Assembly: GCA_934129785.1 (NCBI GenBank)
Contig: CAKOWW010000003.1
Span: 24,315 to 88,314, forward strand
Length of the DNA stretch: 64,000 bases
Direction of reading: 5' to 3'
Origin: an uncultured Clostridia bacterium
GTDB taxonomy: Bacteria > Bacillota > Clostridia > TANB77 > CAG-508
The notes beneath the pieces are model-generated. The model ran no database searches. It saw nothing but the letters and a program-made list of their open reading frames with translations, and had not been told where the DNA came from. The position numbers and the translations under genes are program-made. Positions 5,507 to 28,876 of the stretch are shown one piece after another; within the stretch, counting starts at the first letter, position 1; each line of letters opens with the position of its first letter.

Positions 5507-6097
5507 TTATTTTTTCTTTTCTTTTTTATCAACAGTAACTTCTTTTTTCAAATCTTGTTTATCAATAAATCCTTTTTGATATAAATCTTTAACATACATT
5601 ACTAATGCAAATACAGTAGTAACAATTGCTAAACAATAAAGTCCAAAATCTAAATTAGTCCAAATTTCAGGAAGTTCAAATTGTTTTACAAGTAAGGAAG
5701 CAACAATTGCTATGTAAAATAAAACTGTTGCAAGTTTTCCATACCATCTACTATAAACAACAACATCTTTTCCATAAAGGAAAGAAGCACCAACTATCAT
5801 TATAAACTCCTTAAAAAGGACAATTGCTAATATCCAAATAGGTATAATGTCGGTAATTACAAGAGATGTAAGTGTTGCAATTTGAGTTAATTTATCTGCT
5901 AATGGATCCATTAATTTTCCGAAATTAGAAATCAGGTTGAATTTTCTTGCAATAAATCCATCAGCTATATCTGTTAAACCAGAAAGGGTAAATACTATAA
6001 AAGCAATTATATATTGTCCAGTAAATATATAAAATAAAATTACTGGAATTAATAAAATTCTTATTATTGTTAGTATATTTGGTATATGTTTAAACAT
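5507..6097 (-). CDS. pgsA: CDP-diacylglycerol--glycerol-3-phosphate 3-phosphatidyltransferase
   Basis: CDP-alcohol phosphatidyltransferase motif DIADGFIARKF...GKLMDPLADKL. Confidence 0.8.
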   Translation of the reverse strand: MFKHIPNILTIIRILLIPVILFYIFTGQYIIAFIVFTLSGLTDIADGFIARKFNLISNFGKLMDPLADKLTQIATLTSLVITDIIPIWILAIVLFKEFIMIVGASFLYGKDVVVYSRWYGKLATVLFYIAIVASLLVKQFELPEIWTNLDFGLYCLAIVTTVFALVMYVKDLYQKGFIDKQDLKKEVTVDKKEKKK

Positions 6098-6106
6098 TTT
6101 TTTCTC

Positions 6107-8473
6107 CTATTTTACTTCAAATTTTAATTTATCATTTTCAAAATCTACTGCTACTGTTTGACCATCTAAAAGTTCACCTTTTAATATCATTTCAGATAAT
6201 TCATCTTCTACATATCTTTGAATAGCCCTTCTTAGAGGTCTAGCTCCAAATTTTATATCAGTACCTTTTTCTAATATATAATCTTTAGCACTTTTTGTTA
6301 TAGTCATTTTAATATCTTTATCATTAAGAGCTTTTTTTGTATCTTTTAACATTAAATCCACAATCTGTAACAATTGTTCTTTTGTTAAAGCATCAAAACT
6401 TATAATTTCATCAATTCTATTTAAGAATTCTGGTCTAAATACATCTTTTAAAGAATCAATTAATTTACCTTTGTCTACAGTTTGTTTACCAAAACCAATT
6501 GAGTTTGTATTAGTGTTTGAACCAGCGTTTGAAGTCATTATTATAATTGTATTTGAAAAACTTACAGTATTTCCTTGACTATCTGTTAATTTTCCATCAT
6601 CTAGTACTTGTAGTAAAATATTAAAAACATCTGGATGAGCTTTTTCAATTTCGTCTAATAGAATTATAGAATATGGTTTTCTTTTTACTTTATCAGTTAA
6701 TTGACCAGCATCATCATATCCAACATATCCTGGGGGAGCACCAATTAATTTTGAAGTTGAATGACTTTCCATATATTCAGACATATCAATTCTAATTATA
6801 TTATCTTCACTTCCAAACATTTCATAAGCTAAGCTTTTAGCAAGTTCTGTTTTACCTACACCAGTTGGACCTACAAATATAAATGAAGGTGGTCTTTTTG
6901 TACTTTTTAATCCTGCTCTATTTCTTCTTATAGCTCTTGCTACACAATTAACAGCTTCATCTTGACCAATAATTCTTTTATGAAGATTTGTTTCTAAATT
7001 TAATAGTTTTTGAGTTTCAGCTTCAGTAATTTTTTTAACTGGAATTTTAGTCCAACTTTCTATTACATTAGCAATATCTTGAATTGTTAATTGTTTAGGT
7101 TTCATTTTTTTGCTTAAAGTATCAATTTCTTCTATTAATTGACATTCGCGAGTTTTTAAATCTGCAGCTTTTTGATAATCTTCAGTAGAATCTGCTGCTA
7201 TAACTTCTTCTTTTTCAGATTGAACTTTACTTAGTTCTTGTTTTAACATCTCTAATTTATATAGGCTTTTATTTTCTAAGTTAATTCTAGAACAAGCTTC
7301 ATCTAGTATGTCTATTGCTTTATCAGGTAAAAATCTATCATGAATATATTTTTCTGACATAATAACAGCTTGACGAATAACATCTGAAGATATTTTGACT
7401 TTGTGATAATCTTCATAATATTTTTTAATTCCTTCCAAAATGCCTATAGAATCATCAATATTTGGTTCTTCTACAAGAACTTGTTGAAATCTTCTTTCTA
7501 ATGCTGAATCTTTTTCAATATATTTTCTATATTCTTTTAAAGTTGTAGTTCCAATTAATTGAATTTCTCCATTAGATAGAGCTGGTTTTAAGATGTTAGC
7601 TGCATTCATAGAATGTTCTCCATCTCCAGCACCTATAATGTTGTGAATTTCGTCAATAACTAAAATGATATTTCCATATTGCTTACATTCATCAATAATG
7701 CCTTTCATTCTAGATTCAAATTGACCTCTAAATTGTGTACCAGCGATTACAGATGTCATATCTAGTAAATAAACTTCTTTATTTAAAAGTTTTGCAGGTA
7801 CATTTTGATTAGCAATTCTAATTGCTAATCCTTGTGCAATAGCTGTTTTACCAACACCAGGTTCACCAATAAGGCAAGGATTATTTTTTGAACGTCTATT
7901 TAATATTTGTACAATTCTTTGGATTTCTTTTTCTCTACCTATAACTAAATCAAGTTCATTATTTTTTGCTTTATTTGTTAAGTTAGTTCCATAAGTATCT
8001 AAGAATTTCTTTTTCTTATTTTGGTTTTTCTTTTTTTCTACTTTTACTCTTTTTCTACTATTGCCAGGTTCTTCTTGTTCATCATTATCTTTATTCTTCA
8101 TCATGCTTGAAAAAATTGAACCTAAAGGAATAGCTGCTCCAGAAATTTTTGGACCATTTTCAGGGTCATCTTCATTATTTTGCTCAAAAGTTATAGCGCC
8201 TTCTATGTTTTCTATATCTTCTAAGTTAATATTTTCAGCTAAATCTTTAAAAATATTTTCAAATTGTTGTGTCATATCATTAATATTTAATTTGTCTTTA
8301 GAAAGAATTTCATTTTGATTTGTTATAACTTCAAGAGGATTTATACCTTTTTTCTTGGCACAGTCATAACAATAACCTTCTAAAGTCTCTTTTCCATTTT
8401 CTATTTTTTTATAAAAAACCACTGCTGGTTTATCATTACATTCTGAACATAACATGTGTTTTAAATTCCTCAT
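6107..8473 (-). CDS. clpE: ClpE-like Clp/Hsp100 AAA+ ATPase with N-terminal zinc ribbon
   Basis: Two Walker A sites ([23 protein letters not shown]); N-terminal CSEC..CYDC zinc ribbon in place of Clp_N repeats; coiled-coil linker between the AAA modules. Confidence 0.75.
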
Positions 8474-25561: not shown

Positions 25562-26638
25562 GTGGATAGAAAAATCAAAGTAATTCAATATGGTGTGGGC
25601 AAAATGAGTGTATATACAATGAGATATGTATACGAAAAGGGAGCTGAAATTGTAGGAGCAATTGATGTAAACCCAGCAGTAATAGGAAAAGACATAGGTG
25701 AAATAATGGGAATAGAAAACAAAGGAGTAAAAGTTGTATCAGTTGAAGATGCTGAAAAAATGATACAAGAAACAAAACCTGATATTGCAATAGTAACAAC
25801 AATGAGCTTAATTAAAGATGTAGAAGATGCATTAATGTTATGTGCAAAATTAGGTGTAAATGCAATAACAACTTGTGAAGAGGCTTTTTACCCAATGAAT
25901 TCAAACCCAGCAATAACTAAAAAATTAGATGAAATGGCTAAAAAAACAAATTGTACAATAACAGGAAGTGGATATCAAGATATTTATTGGGGACAACTTA
26001 TATCAAGTATTGCAGGCTCAACACATACAATTAAAAAAATTAAAGGAAGTTCAAGCTACAATGTAGAGGACTATGGAATAGCCTTAGCTAAAGCACATGG
26101 TTCAGGATTAACTTTAGAAGAATTTGACAAACAAGTAGCATCAGTAGATAGAATATCAGATGAAGAAAGAAAAGAAATGATAGAAAAAGGAGAATATTTA
26201 CCTTCATATATGTGGAATGTAAATGGTTGGTTATGTGATAAATTAGGACTTACAGTAAAATCACAAACACAAAAAACAGTGCCACAAACATATTCAGAGG
26301 ATATATATTCAACAACTTTAGGAATGACAGTAAAAGCTGGAGACGCAACAGGAATGAGTGCAGTTGTTACAACTGAAACAGAAGAGGGAATAACAATTGA
26401 AAGTGAATGTATAGGAAAAGTATATGCTAAAGATGAATTTGATAAGAATGAATGGACAATAATTGGAGAACCTGAAACAACATTAGTTATAAATAAACCA
26501 GCAACAGTTGAACTTACTTGTGCAAGTGTTGTTAATAGAATCCCAGATGTTATGAATTCAAAAGCGGGTTATGTTCCAACAGAAGAAATGGGAGACTTAT
26601 ATTATAGAATAAAACCATTAAATGAATATGTAAGATAG
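25562..26638 (+). CDS. DapB-fold NAD(P)-dependent oxidoreductase, 2,4-diaminopentanoate-dehydrogenase-like
   Basis: N-terminal Rossmann fold KIKVIQYGVGKMSVYTMRYV; GTG start at 25562 preceded by AAGGAG; overall length and pattern resemble the Ord / amine dehydrogenase family. Confidence 0.45.
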   Translation: MDRKIKVIQYGVGKMSVYTMRYVYEKGAEIVGAIDVNPAVIGKDIGEIMGIENKGVKVVSVEDAEKMIQETKPDIAIVTTMSLIKDVEDALMLCAKLGVNAITTCEEAFYPMNSNPAITKKLDEMAKKTNCTITGSGYQDIYWGQLISSIAGSTHTIKKIKGSSSYNVEDYGIALAKAHGSGLTLEEFDKQVASVDRISDEERKEMIEKGEYLPSYMWNVNGWLCDKLGLTVKSQTQKTVPQTYSEDIYSTTLGMTVKAGDATGMSAVVTTETEEGITIESECIGKVYAKDEFDKNEWTIIGEPETTLVINKPATVELTCASVVNRIPDVMNSKAGYVPTEEMGDLYYRIKPLNEYVR

Positions 26639-26762
26639 ACTAACAATTTACATTATCTGTAAAAATATTCTTGAGGACTTGATTTTTTCTTGTATTTATG
26701 TTATAATACCTCTGTATTGAGAAAAGAGAGGTGAAAAACTTAAAGTAAAACTTTAAGCAAAT

Positions 26763-27056
26763 ATGAATGTTTTAAAAGTAATAAAAGACTTTTGTGGAGT
26801 TGGAGAAGTAGAAGTATCAGATGCTATAATTAAAACAAATGCAGAAGATGTTAATGGATTAGTATCTCCTATTAATGAAAAAATAATGAAAGAATCATGT
26901 AAAAGGGTTGAAAAGCTAGAAGAAGAGTTTACTATTCCAAATGACAGAAAAACAACATTAGAAAAAAAGCAAAAGCCAAAAAAAGTAATGAATATAGATA
27001 ATGATAATAAAACTGGTAATGTAAGAAATAAAGGAAATATAGAAAAAGAAAGATGA
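26763..27056 (+). CDS. hypothetical 97-aa protein
   Basis: ORF preceded by a TTGATT-17-TATAAT promoter and two 5' hairpins but no SD close to the ATG. Uncertain. Confidence 0.35.
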   Translation: MNVLKVIKDFCGVGEVEVSDAIIKTNAEDVNGLVSPINEKIMKESCKRVEKLEEEFTIPNDRKTTLEKKQKPKKVMNIDNDNKTGNVRNKGNIEKER

Positions 27057-27092
27057 ATATACAAGAAATTTTAGATTTCTTGTATTTTTATC

Positions 27093-27121
27093 TTGACAAA
27101 TGGAAAAACTACCGTTATAAT
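27093..27121 (+). promoter_or_regulatory. strong sigmaA promoter TTGACA-17-TATAAT for tRNA-Met
   Basis: Consensus hexamers. The spacer aatggaaaaac resembles that of the S10 operon promoter at 41809. Confidence 0.6.
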
Positions 27122-27154
27122 AGATTTTGTCAGTTATCATTGCTGACACAACCT

Positions 27155-27231
27155 GGCGAAGTAGCTCAGTTGGCTAGAGCATTCGGTTCATACCCGAAGG
27201 GTCATGTGTTCGAATCACATCTTCGCTACCA
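27155..27231 (+). tRNA. elongator tRNA-Met (anticodon CAU), CCA encoded
   Basis: Cloverleaf: acceptor GGCGAAG/CTTCGCT, D-arm GCTC..GAGC, anticodon stem TTCGG/CCGAA with loop TTCATAC, T-arm ATGTG-TTCGAAT-CACAT, then ACCA. The GGTTCATACCC anticodon arm is typical of elongator Met. Confidence 0.85.
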
Positions 27232-27238
27232 ATAAATT

Positions 27239-27262
27239 AGCCCATTTGAGGGCTTTTTTTTA
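27239..27262 (+). terminator. terminator after tRNA-Met
   Basis: agccc-atttga-gggct followed by TTTTTTTT. Confidence 0.6.
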
Positions 27263-27466
27263 TTATAGGAAATTCATTTGATGAAGTACAAAACAAAATA
27301 ATTGTAAAATTTTACTGTGTTCGCTTGTTTTGGGGTAAAAAATGTTATATAGTGTTATACATAGAAAATGAGAATAAGCGGAGTGTGTTGCCACCTTTAA
27401 CTCTTTGATGTTTACATACTACTTCCACGACTTCTGGTTGTGAGATTGATATATGGGGGTGGTTAA

Positions 27467-27577
27467 TATGGTAGAATCAGTATTATTAAGTATTACATAC
27501 CTACTTTTCTTTGGATTAGTAGGAATGGCTATCATAAATGTTGCCTTGTTAATCATCATTTGTATTTTACTACATAG
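27467..27577 (+). CDS. 36-aa hydrophobic peptide, type I toxin-like (MVESVLLSITYLLFFGLVGMAIINVCLVNHHLYFTT)
   Basis: Strong SD GGGGGTGG 6 nt before the ATG; single TM helix; followed by a hairpin terminator. A convergent antisense transcript is predicted on the other strand. Confidence 0.5.
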   Translation, partial: YGRISIIKYYIPTFLWISRNGYHKCCLVNHHLYFTT

Positions 27578-27581
27578 GCAA

Positions 27582-27663
27582 TAAAAAATAAACCATTCTG
27601 CTTTTGACCGAGTGAATGGTTTATCTATTTCTCTGGCAACCACTTTCGTGGCTCTCATTTTCT
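27582..27663 (-). ncRNA. putative ~80-nt antisense sRNA (candidate type I antitoxin) convergent with the peptide gene
   Basis: Minus-strand promoter TTGACT-17-TATAAT (27698-27670). Transcript ends in a perfect terminator AAACCAUUC..GAAUGGUUU followed by UUUUUU, sharing the terminator hairpin region with the toxin mRNA 3' end. Confidence 0.4.
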
Positions 27664-27669
27664 ATTTTT

Positions 27670-27698
27670 ATTATACACAGATTTTTAAAAAAAGTCAA
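27670..27698 (-). promoter_or_regulatory. sigmaA promoter TTGACT-17-TATAAT on the minus strand
   Basis: Reverse complement of agtcaa(27693-27698) ... attata(27670-27675) with a 17-nt spacer. Confidence 0.5.
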
Positions 27699-27777
27699 TT
27701 TTTTATAGTAATATTTTATAAAAATGTATGCAACCGTGTATGCAACTAGAAAATAATATTTAATAAAAGTTTTATTA

Positions 27778-27823
27778 GTTCATACCCGAAGGACCACGTG
27801 TTCGAATCACATCTTCGCTACCA
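27778..27823 (+). repeat. direct repeat of the 3' 46 nt of tRNA-Met (anticodon loop to CCA); att-like scar
   Basis: gttcatacccgaagg...tgttcgaatcacatcttcgctacca is identical to tRNA positions 32-77 except for 3 mismatches in the variable/T-stem region. Confidence 0.8.
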
Positions 27824-28066
27824 TTCAAATAAAAATTAAAATAGCTTGTATCAACAGATACTTGCTATTTTTTTGGGACAATAAAAAAGATAATAGTTAA
27901 TAGTCTTATAAATAATATGTCAAATTAATAATTTCATAAATAAAAATTATATATAAAAACAGTATTTTAAAATTTCATAAATTAAAAATACATTTTCGTA
28001 AAATAAAATGAAAAATTTTAAAATCTAGTGATAAAATCCATATAACAAAATAAAGAGGTGATACAA

Positions 28067-28693
28067 ATGATTGATAGAATCTGTGCCTTTTTAACTAAAA
28101 GAATTAGAAAAGAAATGCCTGAAATTGATGACGAAAGAGCAGAAGTGATTTTCTATGGATTACAAAATATAGTAGGAGAAATTCCCAAAATATTTATAAT
28201 GCTAGGAATAGCATATATATTAGGAATATTCAAATGGTCATTATTTACTTTTTTAGCATTATTCCCATATAAAGGAACATCAGGTGGAGTACATTTAAAA
28301 ACACATATAGGTTGCACAATATTTACAACAATGTTTTATTGTATAATACCGTTTGCATCCCAATATATAGTGTTACCACAAATTGCAAAATATTTAGTGA
28401 TAGCATGTGTTTGGATATTTGGAATGATAATGATAAAACTTTATGCACCAGCTGACACAGAAGATGTACCAATATTAGAAGAAGGCGTACGAAAGAAGAA
28501 AAGGATAGTGGCATATATAACATTTTCATTAGGGATGCTTGTTGCTCTAATAACAGATAATAATATGATTACAAATATTTTAGTATTAGCAAATTTATTT
28601 CAAACAATTACAATTACTAAATTTATTTATAAATTGACAAATAGTAAGTATGGCTACGAAGTATATGGAGATACTTCAACTGAAATAGTTTGA
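28067..28693 (+). CDS. agrB: accessory gene regulator B (AgrD-processing membrane peptidase)
   Basis: ~200 aa polytopic protein; N-terminal ERAEVIFYGLQ and catalytic GGVHLKTHIGC (His/Cys) typical of AgrB; ATG at 28067 after AAAGAGGTGA. Confidence 0.75.
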   Translation: MIDRICAFLTKRIRKEMPEIDDERAEVIFYGLQNIVGEIPKIFIMLGIAYILGIFKWSLFTFLALFPYKGTSGGVHLKTHIGCTIFTTMFYCIIPFASQYIVLPQIAKYLVIACVWIFGMIMIKLYAPADTEDVPILEEGVRKKKRIVAYITFSLGMLVALITDNNMITNILVLANLFQTITITKFIYKLTNSKYGYEVYGDTSTEIV

Positions 28694-28756
28694 TATAAAA
28701 TATGTACCGGTAATATTTTATGTTATATAGATTTTTATACTAAGGAGGGGATGTTT

Positions 28757-28876
28757 ATGTTAAAATTTTTAGCAAAAACAGCAGAAAAATACGCAAAAGC
28801 AACAAATACGGCATGCTTTGTTATGGGGATATTTCACCAACCTAAAATGCCAAAATGTATGATAAAAAAAGATTAA
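28757..28876 (+). CDS. agrD: autoinducing peptide precursor AgrD (MLKFLAKTAEKYAKATNTACFVMGIFHQPKMPKCMIKKD)
   Basis: 39-aa ORF 60 nt after agrB with SD AAGGAGGGG. N-terminal amphipathic helix, then a Cys-containing AIP region, then the HQP motif seen in clostridial AgrD. Below the ORF-track size cutoff. Confidence 0.65.
   Translation: MLKFLAKTAEKYAKATNTACFVMGIFHQPKMPKCMIKKD

Follow-up and report, generated by a model that had tools for sequence, protein, structure and literature searches.

A putative type I toxin-antitoxin cassette, often at the ends of mobile elements, in uncultured gut Clostridia

Architecture of the locus

A 64,000-nt stretch of contig CAKOWW010000003.1 from an uncultured Clostridia bacterium (the window; positions are counted from its first nucleotide) was found to contain a cassette of about 400 bp (27290..27700), in which a gene for a small hydrophobic peptide on the plus strand converges on a predicted antisense RNA gene on the minus strand. 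The cassette was analyzed as a candidate type I toxin-antitoxin (TA) module, as had been proposed from the letters of the window (the sequence-only reading). From promoter to promoter, it is the only part of the window common to about 50 related loci (blastn, alignments), and no further copies were found in the 64,000 nt.

The toxin-candidate open reading frame (ORF) lies at 27468..27584 (+), with ATG at 27468 and TAA at 27582-27584, and encodes a 38-aa peptide, MVESVLLSITYLLFFGLVGMAIINVALLIIICILLHRQ, conserved in 44 copies. It is preceded by the Shine-Dalgarno sequence (SD) GGGGGTGG (27455..27462, +; GGAGGTGG in many relatives) and a 5-nt spacer, TTAAT; the pattern GG[A/G]GGTGG-5 nt-ATG is invariant in family copies. 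Another ATG in this frame, at 27453, overlaps the SD and probably does not serve as the start codon. The peptide has a grand average of hydropathy of 1.98 and was modelled by AlphaFold2 as one helix (residues 2-37, mean confidence pLDDT 96.6), so that a small (<60 aa), hydrophobic, membrane-targeted product with its own SD, as expected of a type I toxin, is present. The sequence-only reading had described a 36-codon ORF with an unusually strong SD and one transmembrane helix. The ORF, its start and the strong SD 5 nt before the ATG stand, but the 36-aa sequence given (MVESVLLSITYLLFFGLVGMAIINVCLVNHHLYFTT) was frameshifted after residue 25; hydrophobicity and a single helix hold for the true 38-aa product, which is more hydrophobic than the mistranslated version.

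The sense promoter, TTGTTT-17-TATAGT, was located at 27325..27353 (+), with a likely transcription start near 27361. Similar TTGnnn-17-TATAGT promoters were present in 36 of 40 loci, and were consistently weaker than the antisense promoter. A 10-codon frame (MRISGVCCHL, 27367-27399) opens in the 5' untranslated region (5'UTR) at AUG 27367. It is probably not coding: its stop (TAA, TGA or TAG) is present in about 20 of 31 loci and lost in the rest, and its substitutions are non-synonymous.

The toxin mRNA was predicted by RNAalifold (31 sequences) to fold over its own translation signals. The anti-SD GCCACCUU (27390..27397, +) pairs with the SD region (helix 3; 8 bp, 100% paired in the 31 sequences), and the start codon is enclosed in helix 6 (27467..27536, +), in which UAUGGUAG (27467-27474) pairs with CUAUCAUA (27529-27536) in codons 21-23 (99.6% paired); a pair adjacent to this helix shows 10 double changes. 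The 5'UTR segment AAGCGGAGUGUGUU (27376..27389, +), which resembles the 3' arm of the antisense RNA, is predicted to pair with 27590-27603, the 5' arm of the terminator (helix 2; 13 bp, 99.8% of cells paired, no double covariation). One 5'UTR hairpin and two more helices within the ORF were also predicted, the latter accounting for the low synonymous divergence of the ORF. Over the 65 pairs of the fold, 99.0% of cells were paired, compared with 39-52% when partners were slid by 1-3 columns, and 10 pairs carried double changes, compared with 3.3 in shuffles (0/500 reached that number), although the structure was derived from the same sequences that were used to test the pairing. G-U pairs are abundant, and the fold is therefore specific to the plus strand.

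On the minus strand, the promoter TTGACT-17-TATAAT (27670..27698; TTGACT 27698-27693, TATAAT 27675-27670) matches the consensus at 11 of 12 positions, as the sequence-only reading had reported. Six consensus-like promoters were found in the window and 7.6 were expected in shuffled sequence. Because such sites are equally common by chance, the window alone would leave the TA reading a guess; the locus stands out from chance by its conservation in about 50 other genomes. In all 42 complete copies, TTGAC[A/T]-17-TATAAT lies on the minus strand, at a distance of 85-93 nt downstream of the toxin stop codon, whereas its spacer drifts in sequence.

The predicted antisense small RNA (sRNA), the antitoxin candidate, is about 84 nt long (27580..27663, -) and consists of a 5' single strand, a stem-loop (SL1, 27638-27653), an A-rich linker, a terminator and a U-run that ends at the toxin stop codon. 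The terminator hairpin (27586..27626) is bidirectional and would be shared by both transcripts. Its core is formed by AAACCATTC (27590-27598), a 15-nt loop and GAATGGTTT (27614-27622), and can be extended to 13 bp, after which the minus strand reads AUUUUUUAUU and runs into the toxin stop codon. An 89-nt minus-strand RNA folded into the 5' hairpin and the terminator at -22.2 kcal/mol (z = -3.3; 0/200 shuffles as good). The terminator had been called perfect, which was too strong: its loop has 15 nt, and it is missed by a simple terminator scan; that the hairpin is shared by both strands was confirmed, and its stem covaries across species. Similarly, the convergent, 3'-overlapping arrangement was recovered, but the overlap consists essentially of the terminator (about 45-55 nt), reaching just the stop codon. 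The hairpin region is thus where mRNA and sRNA are complementary, and a cis-encoded antisense gene complementary to the candidate toxin mRNA is predicted from sequence.

In an alignment of 42 sRNA sequences, compensatory double changes were found at 5 of 11 terminator stem pairs, for example in the variants AAACCAUU/AAUGGUUU, AAGUCAUU/AAUGACUU, AAGCCAUU/AAUGGCUU and AACCGUU/AACGGUU. SL1 was judged by folding the sRNAs singly, since its variable loop length caused it to be missed by MAFFT/RNAalifold. It formed in almost all of 27 distinct sRNAs, from stems of different sequence (AGCCAC/GUGGUU, GUAACAC/GUGUUGC, AACUAC/GUAGUU). The invariant part of the sRNA is AAAGCAGAAUGG, comprising the 3' half of the loop and the 3' arm, and is complementary to the invariant CCAUUCUGCUUU of the mRNA. 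A 79-codon minus-strand ORF (27419-27658), antisense to the toxin gene and present in ORF listings, was rejected as a gene: the frame ranges from 4 to 79 codons across loci and its ATG is absent in 4. As the frame is not conserved, it is regarded as incidental and the sRNA as non-coding.

The ORF is flanked by inverted arms of about 35 bp. The left arm (IR-L, 27356..27395, +) contains the 5' end of the toxin mRNA (AUAGAAAAUGAGA...GUGUGUUGCC) and is paralogous to the right arm (IR-R, 27631..27670, -), which contains the 5' end of the sRNA. As the arms are inverted, both RNAs begin with (A)UAGAAAAUGAGA and have ...GUGGUUGCC in common. The arms change in concert: AU was replaced by GC in both in 9 sequences, and one-sided changes gave G-U, never A-C. 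In one locus (L055), the sRNA begins with a copy of the mRNA 5'UTR. The pairing of the arms within the mRNA (helix 1, 5' end with 3' end) is conserved and covarying, but it requires read-through of the hairpin, and its covariation could come from gene conversion between the arms.

Distribution, decay and genomic context

A back-translated scan of one genome per species yielded 50 loci. Their carriers are metagenome-assembled genomes (MAGs) of uncultured gut Clostridium/Clostridia from human, Hadza, mouse and rabbit samples; the cassette is also present on one IMG/VR contig and one JGI metagenome contig. The JGI locus (L001), which was recovered in a protein search as a 37-aa homologue, has the SD, ORF and hairpin as in the window and a perfect TTGACA-17-TATAAT antisense promoter, and has no tRNA. 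In DNA-pattern scans, a phage-like IMG/VR contig pair (L004/L011 and L010) carried a 97% identical cassette at the contig end; the other pattern matches on viral contigs (L002, L003, L005-L009) were chance hits. Homology to the window was restricted to about 27290-27700 in every locus (blastn), with sharp boundaries, and the 86 flanks fell into 64 clusters and were unrelated. The conserved unit therefore spans exactly the interval from sense to antisense promoter.

Full copies of the peptide follow the pattern MVE..L..ITYLLF[FY]GLV[GA][MV]TIIN[VI]ALLIIIC.LLHRQ. The ATG, TAA and length were invariant in 44 ORF copies (28 distinct at the nucleotide level), variable sites were distributed 18/11/23 over the three codon positions, and non-synonymous polymorphism (pN) was 0.10 compared with a synonymous value (pS) of 0.18. 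The sole ORF indel (L059/L001) is an in-frame loss of exactly one codon. These data support a conserved ORF that behaves as coding. A profile search added 57 relatives of 37-44 aa, ending in HRQ, SK, SKQQ or NNNKKTHL, all of them unnamed or labelled hypothetical. A divergent branch has a longer polar tail (…NNNKKTHL / …KTHL; P0018, P0042, P0044, P0049 and L060, 6001-6135, from an Oscillospiraceae MAG). The downstream region of L060 is different and has no canonical antisense promoter at the usual place.

Decayed copies were found in which the two genes had fared differently. Toxin promoter, SD and start codon are lost in four truncated copies (L050, about 360-545; L057, about 6005-6250; L061, about 6047-6220; and the second copy of L046, 9014-9168), and the hairpin, sRNA body and consensus antisense promoter are kept; in L023, toxin promoter and 5'UTR are lost and the sRNA gene is kept. 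The four truncated copies, as orphan antitoxin genes, might act as anti-addiction or immunity RNAs. Only one complete locus lacks the antisense promoter (L047, 5834-6160, an orphan toxin beside tRNA-Met). There, the cassette breaks right after the hairpin and is followed by another terminator, and the sense -10 has changed from TATAGT to TTTAGT, with more changes at the start site. Retention of the antitoxin after loss of the toxin fits a toxin/antitoxin pair, a view which this comparison of loci supports.

Two genomes contain two cassettes each (L017 and L032 in the MAG CAMUDX01; L024 and L044 in JAAWAX01), and the co-resident variants differ mainly in the terminator stem and loop. Cognate duplexes, in which hairpin and tails are perfectly complementary over about 45-55 nt, were predicted at -88 to -107 kcal/mol. 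Where one MAG has two full copies, predicted cross-pairing reached -37/-39 kcal/mol compared with -97/-99 kcal/mol for the cognate pairs.

The surroundings of the loci point to mobile elements. Among ORFs of at least 200 aa on the sRNA side, the commonest families were Relaxase (7), Resolvase+Recombinase (6) and Mob_Pre (3), found on that side only; housekeeping genes such as those for tyrosyl-tRNA synthetase and Spo0A lie on the other side. Groups of loci have a common sRNA-side flank and different flanks on the other side, an arrangement that puts the cassette at one end of integrative mobilizable elements. The element in locus L043 is the same as that on the IMG/VR contig, with the order tRNA-Met, helix-turn-helix gene, two membrane-protein genes, cassette and host 6S RNA gene (6S/SsrS, 6333-6523, -; Rfam RF00013, 82.4 bits), the last directly after the cassette. 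As the 'viral' contig (L004/L011) runs into the 6S gene, its end is host DNA and the cassette is the island's last module.

In the window, a tRNA-Met gene (CAU anticodon; ARAGORN; Rfam 67.9 bits) lies at 27155..27231 (+). Its 3' part (27186-27239, +), resembling a left attachment site (attL), is directly repeated at 27778..27831 (+) as an attR-like remnant with 89% identity over 54 nt; the right copy matches the last 24 nt of the tRNA exactly, and the repeat measures 46-54 nt. The mini-island at tRNA-Met of the sequence-only reading was thereby borne out, with a 592-bp islet bounded by the repeats. The window and the L043 island have the cassette plus about 70 bp of distal end (27700-27768) in common, after which the tRNA remnant follows in the window; the islet is therefore best read as an element deleted to its addiction module. 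An association with tRNA genes was rejected as a family trait, as only the window, L047 and L043 are near tRNA-Met and most loci have no nearby tRNA.

Two further observations were made beside the cassette. Between antisense promoter and tRNA remnant, a tandem direct repeat, TGTATGCAAC-N2-TGTATGCAAC (27725-27746), is present, as it is in L043, L004 and L013; in the original island it may have served as an operator or as an arm-type recombinase site. Reading of the translations suggested a putative agrB-like gene (211 aa, 28058-28693) and a short agrD-like ORF (41 aa, 28751-28876) immediately right of the islet, an adjacency that is not conserved in other loci.

Interpretation and alternative explanations

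The observations consist of sequence features, conservation and covariation, and from these the cassette is probably a type I TA (addiction) module. The convergent arrangement on which the sequence-only reading was built makes sequence-level predictions that hold in about 50 independent loci. Under this interpretation, the moderate promoter TTGTTT-17-TATAGT would yield a toxin mRNA of roughly 270 nt that is poorly translatable, with the anti-SD GCCACCUU on the SD, the AUG region on codons 21-23, and the 5' end on the 3' hairpin region. Its product, a 38-residue hydrophobic single-helix peptide, would insert into the membrane and be harmful in quantity. The convergent promoter of consensus strength would drive a non-coding RNA of about 85 nt whose terminator is shared with the mRNA. 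The first contact is probably made by the complementary 15-nt loops and the invariant CCAUUCUGCUUU / AAAGCAGAAUGG, and pairing may lead to duplex-dependent decay and/or a translationally locked mRNA, by a pathway and RNases that we infer. Placed at the ends of integrative mobilizable elements or prophage-like islands, the module would stabilise them, and in the window a tRNA-Met-integrated element would have been deleted down to the cassette between its two att-like repeats.

Several points weigh against this interpretation. Many type I toxins have a charged or Lys-rich tail at the C-terminus, which the peptide lacks (it ends in HRQ, and relatives in SK or SKQQ), and pN/pS of about 0.56 indicates only moderate purifying selection. 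If the mRNA stops at the shared hairpin, little of it overlaps the sRNA, and the window has a weak U-tract on the plus strand. The asymmetric decay amounts to 5 loci compared with 1, most loci come from MAGs whose context can be fragmentary, and the standard model does not explain the concerted 5' inverted repeat.

The missing tail would suit a benign small membrane protein, such as an accessory or regulatory subunit or an exclusion factor of mobile elements, tuned by a cis-antisense RNA; the cassette would then be antisense-regulated cargo and not an addiction module. Many small hydrophobic proteins are non-toxins, and no toxin hidden Markov model matched the peptide. Double sequestration of SD and AUG together with an antisense promoter of consensus strength would, however, be heavy repression for a harmless product. 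Moreover, 5 loci have kept the sRNA gene after losing the toxin, while the locus without an sRNA promoter has a damaged toxin -10, and the cassette stands alone from promoter to promoter, with no conserved partner gene beside it. A benign product was accordingly considered unlikely. The orphan sRNA genes, which have intact consensus promoters in 4-5 loci without a translatable toxin, might instead point to the sRNA as the main product, be it a trans-acting regulator or an anti-addiction/immunity RNA against incoming elements, with the peptide gene secondary. The invariant AAAGCAGAAUGG could recognise any family member, but the full pair is kept in at least 38 loci, duplexes across variants are much weaker than cognate ones, and no further target came to light, no search aimed at one having been made; the primacy of the sRNA is improbable.

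The position of the cassette at element termini and near att-like tRNA repeats, its sharp homology boundaries, and the arms of about 35 bp that flank the ORF and evolve in concert would also be consistent with a unit that serves mainly in the structure or recombination of mobile-element ends (a terminal inverted repeat, an att-associated sequence, or one resembling a miniature inverted-repeat transposable element), the ORF and promoters being incidental. Such a feature would not account for an invariant frame, start, stop and SD with in-frame indels, for -35/-10 hexamers that are conserved while the spacer drifts, or for RNA-level covariation of the hairpins, G-U pairs included. The two promoters exactly mark the boundaries, and neither a target-site duplication nor a flanking terminal inverted repeat was seen. 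A shared att function is unlikely because recombinases differ among the host elements (serine recombinases, tRNA-site integration), and this explanation was judged highly improbable.

Returning to the addiction module, the arms might change in concert because a read-through mRNA folds back 5' to 3' in a hok-like manner, because they contain a factor-binding site or initial transcribed sequence common to both RNAs, or through gene conversion. The 5'UTR also mimics the 3' arm of the sRNA and may compete with it for the mRNA 3' site. A fuller version of this idea, which we regard as doubtful, is that 5'UTR and sRNA are inverted paralogues (same 5' 13-mer; AAGCGGAGUGUGUU resembling AAGCAGAAUGGUUU of the sRNA) that compete for the mRNA 3' site AAACCAUUCUGCUU. 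The mRNA would carry a 'cis-antitoxin' that closes and protects it, and the sRNA would displace this closure and lead to decay; or a hok-like fold-back, taken over from a duplicated antitoxin gene, would lock a read-through mRNA. If true, mimicry or fold-back would give Gram-positive type I systems a form of regulation that has not been described for them. The inverted-repeat design poses a mechanistic question open to experiment.

Type I peptides and RNAs are almost never annotated. Experimentally validated clostridial type I TA systems are limited to C. difficile (PMC6563280). The present loci add a compact candidate family in roughly 50 uncultured gut Clostridia species, with precise promoter, RNA and peptide coordinates, and offer natural variants in the form of insulated paralogues and orphan antitoxins. 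In gut MAGs, the cassette marks where integrative mobilizable elements and prophage remnants end, and it could explain the survival of the 0.5-kb islet between tRNA att repeats. For commensal clostridia that resist genetic work, it may also provide a means of counter-selection or stabilisation, as C. difficile toxins have done.

Comparison with known type I systems

No named family was matched. Profile searches of the peptide(s) against Pfam, NCBIfam, PHROGs, PADLOC and PDB gave no toxin or other meaningful match (E<=10 for Pfam/NCBIfam), and Rfam (26500-28500, E<=5) returned only the tRNA, with no RatA, SR4 or other antitoxin RNA. Searches of INPHARED phages and PLSDB plasmids (blastn, 'distant' mode) gave no cassette match, and the peptide motifs were found in no paper by full-text search. 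The likeness to BsrG, TxpA and Fst that the sequence-only reading had noted is therefore one of style and not of homology: profile searches were without match, and hhalign gave probabilities of 7% for BsrG and 0.5% for TxpA, with comparison sequences that may not be exact.

In architecture, the cassette is closest to par/Fst. In par (Fst/RNA II) of E. faecalis pAD1, promoters converge on a shared bidirectional terminator, and complementary stem-loops make the initial contact (PMC7472228). The antisense RNA stays clear of the ORF body, and the SD and 5' end of the toxin mRNA are sequestered by intramolecular helices (PMC7472228, PMC8594479). Fst-type toxins are single-helix membrane peptides of about 30-40 aa, often on mobile genetic elements (PMC7472228). 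Like par and par-like loci of Firmicutes, the cassette has convergent promoters and a bidirectional terminator, an antisense RNA off the ORF body, predicted sequestration of SD and 5' end, a small helical peptide and a mobile-element location. Unlike Fst, the peptide has no sequence homology, PXXXG motif, Trp or charged tail; proline was absent from 26 distinct full-length (38-aa) peptides from genome loci, and among wider relatives was present only in P0032 (MVEP...), without PXXXG. The repeats of par are direct (DRa/DRb), so that the 5' regions are complementary and the translation initiation region is blocked, whereas those of the cassette are inverted. A par-like second contact between sRNA and mRNA was looked for in the cassette and rejected, as RNAduplex energies were no better than those of shuffles (z -0.6 to +1.4).

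In bsrG/SR4 and txpA/RatA of B. subtilis (SPbeta, skin), a convergent antisense RNA overlaps the toxin mRNA at the 3' end, the SD is buried in the mRNA, and a stabilising role at the prophage or island site has been proposed (PMC3834814, PMC6563280). The antisense RNA of these systems overlaps the 3' part of the ORF (PMC8594479). The cassette resembles them in its convergent, 3'-overlapping antisense RNA, Gram-positive host, hydrophobic 38-aa peptide, buried SD and island location. BsrG is also 38 aa long, and the overlap in these systems is roughly 75-120 nt. Unlike them, the sRNA of the cassette covers only the stop codon and terminator, and no similarity to TxpA or BsrG was detectable in the peptide.

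C. difficile modules such as CD2517.1/RCd8, CD0956.2/RCd10 and CD0977.1/RCd11 are convergent, overlapping pairs in prophages and the skin element, where they stabilise prophages, and their toxins were unannotated before transcriptomics (PMC6563280, PMC7699646). In these toxins (34-59 aa), a conserved hydrophobic N-terminus is followed by a C-terminus that is charged and rich in Lys (PMC6563280). A clostridial host and convergent, overlapping genes are common to the cassette; its carriers, in contrast, are MAGs of uncultured gut Clostridium/Clostridia, and its peptides end in HRQ, SK or SKQQ without a Lys-rich tail and show no detectable similarity. No association of the cassette with CRISPR or a cyclic di-GMP riboswitch was seen.

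In hok/sok, tac/fbi closure keeps the full-length hok mRNA inert. If the cassette mRNA reads through the hairpin, its 5' end (AUAGAAAAUGAGA...GUUGCC) would similarly pair with its 3' end through the covarying helix 1. The differences are that the antisense RNA of the cassette would act at the 3' end and not at the leader, that a convincingly conserved mok-like frame is absent, and that there is no homology. Taken together, these sequence comparisons suggest that the cassette probably represents a new, unannotated family of a known kind, type I TA, that lies outside the named families.

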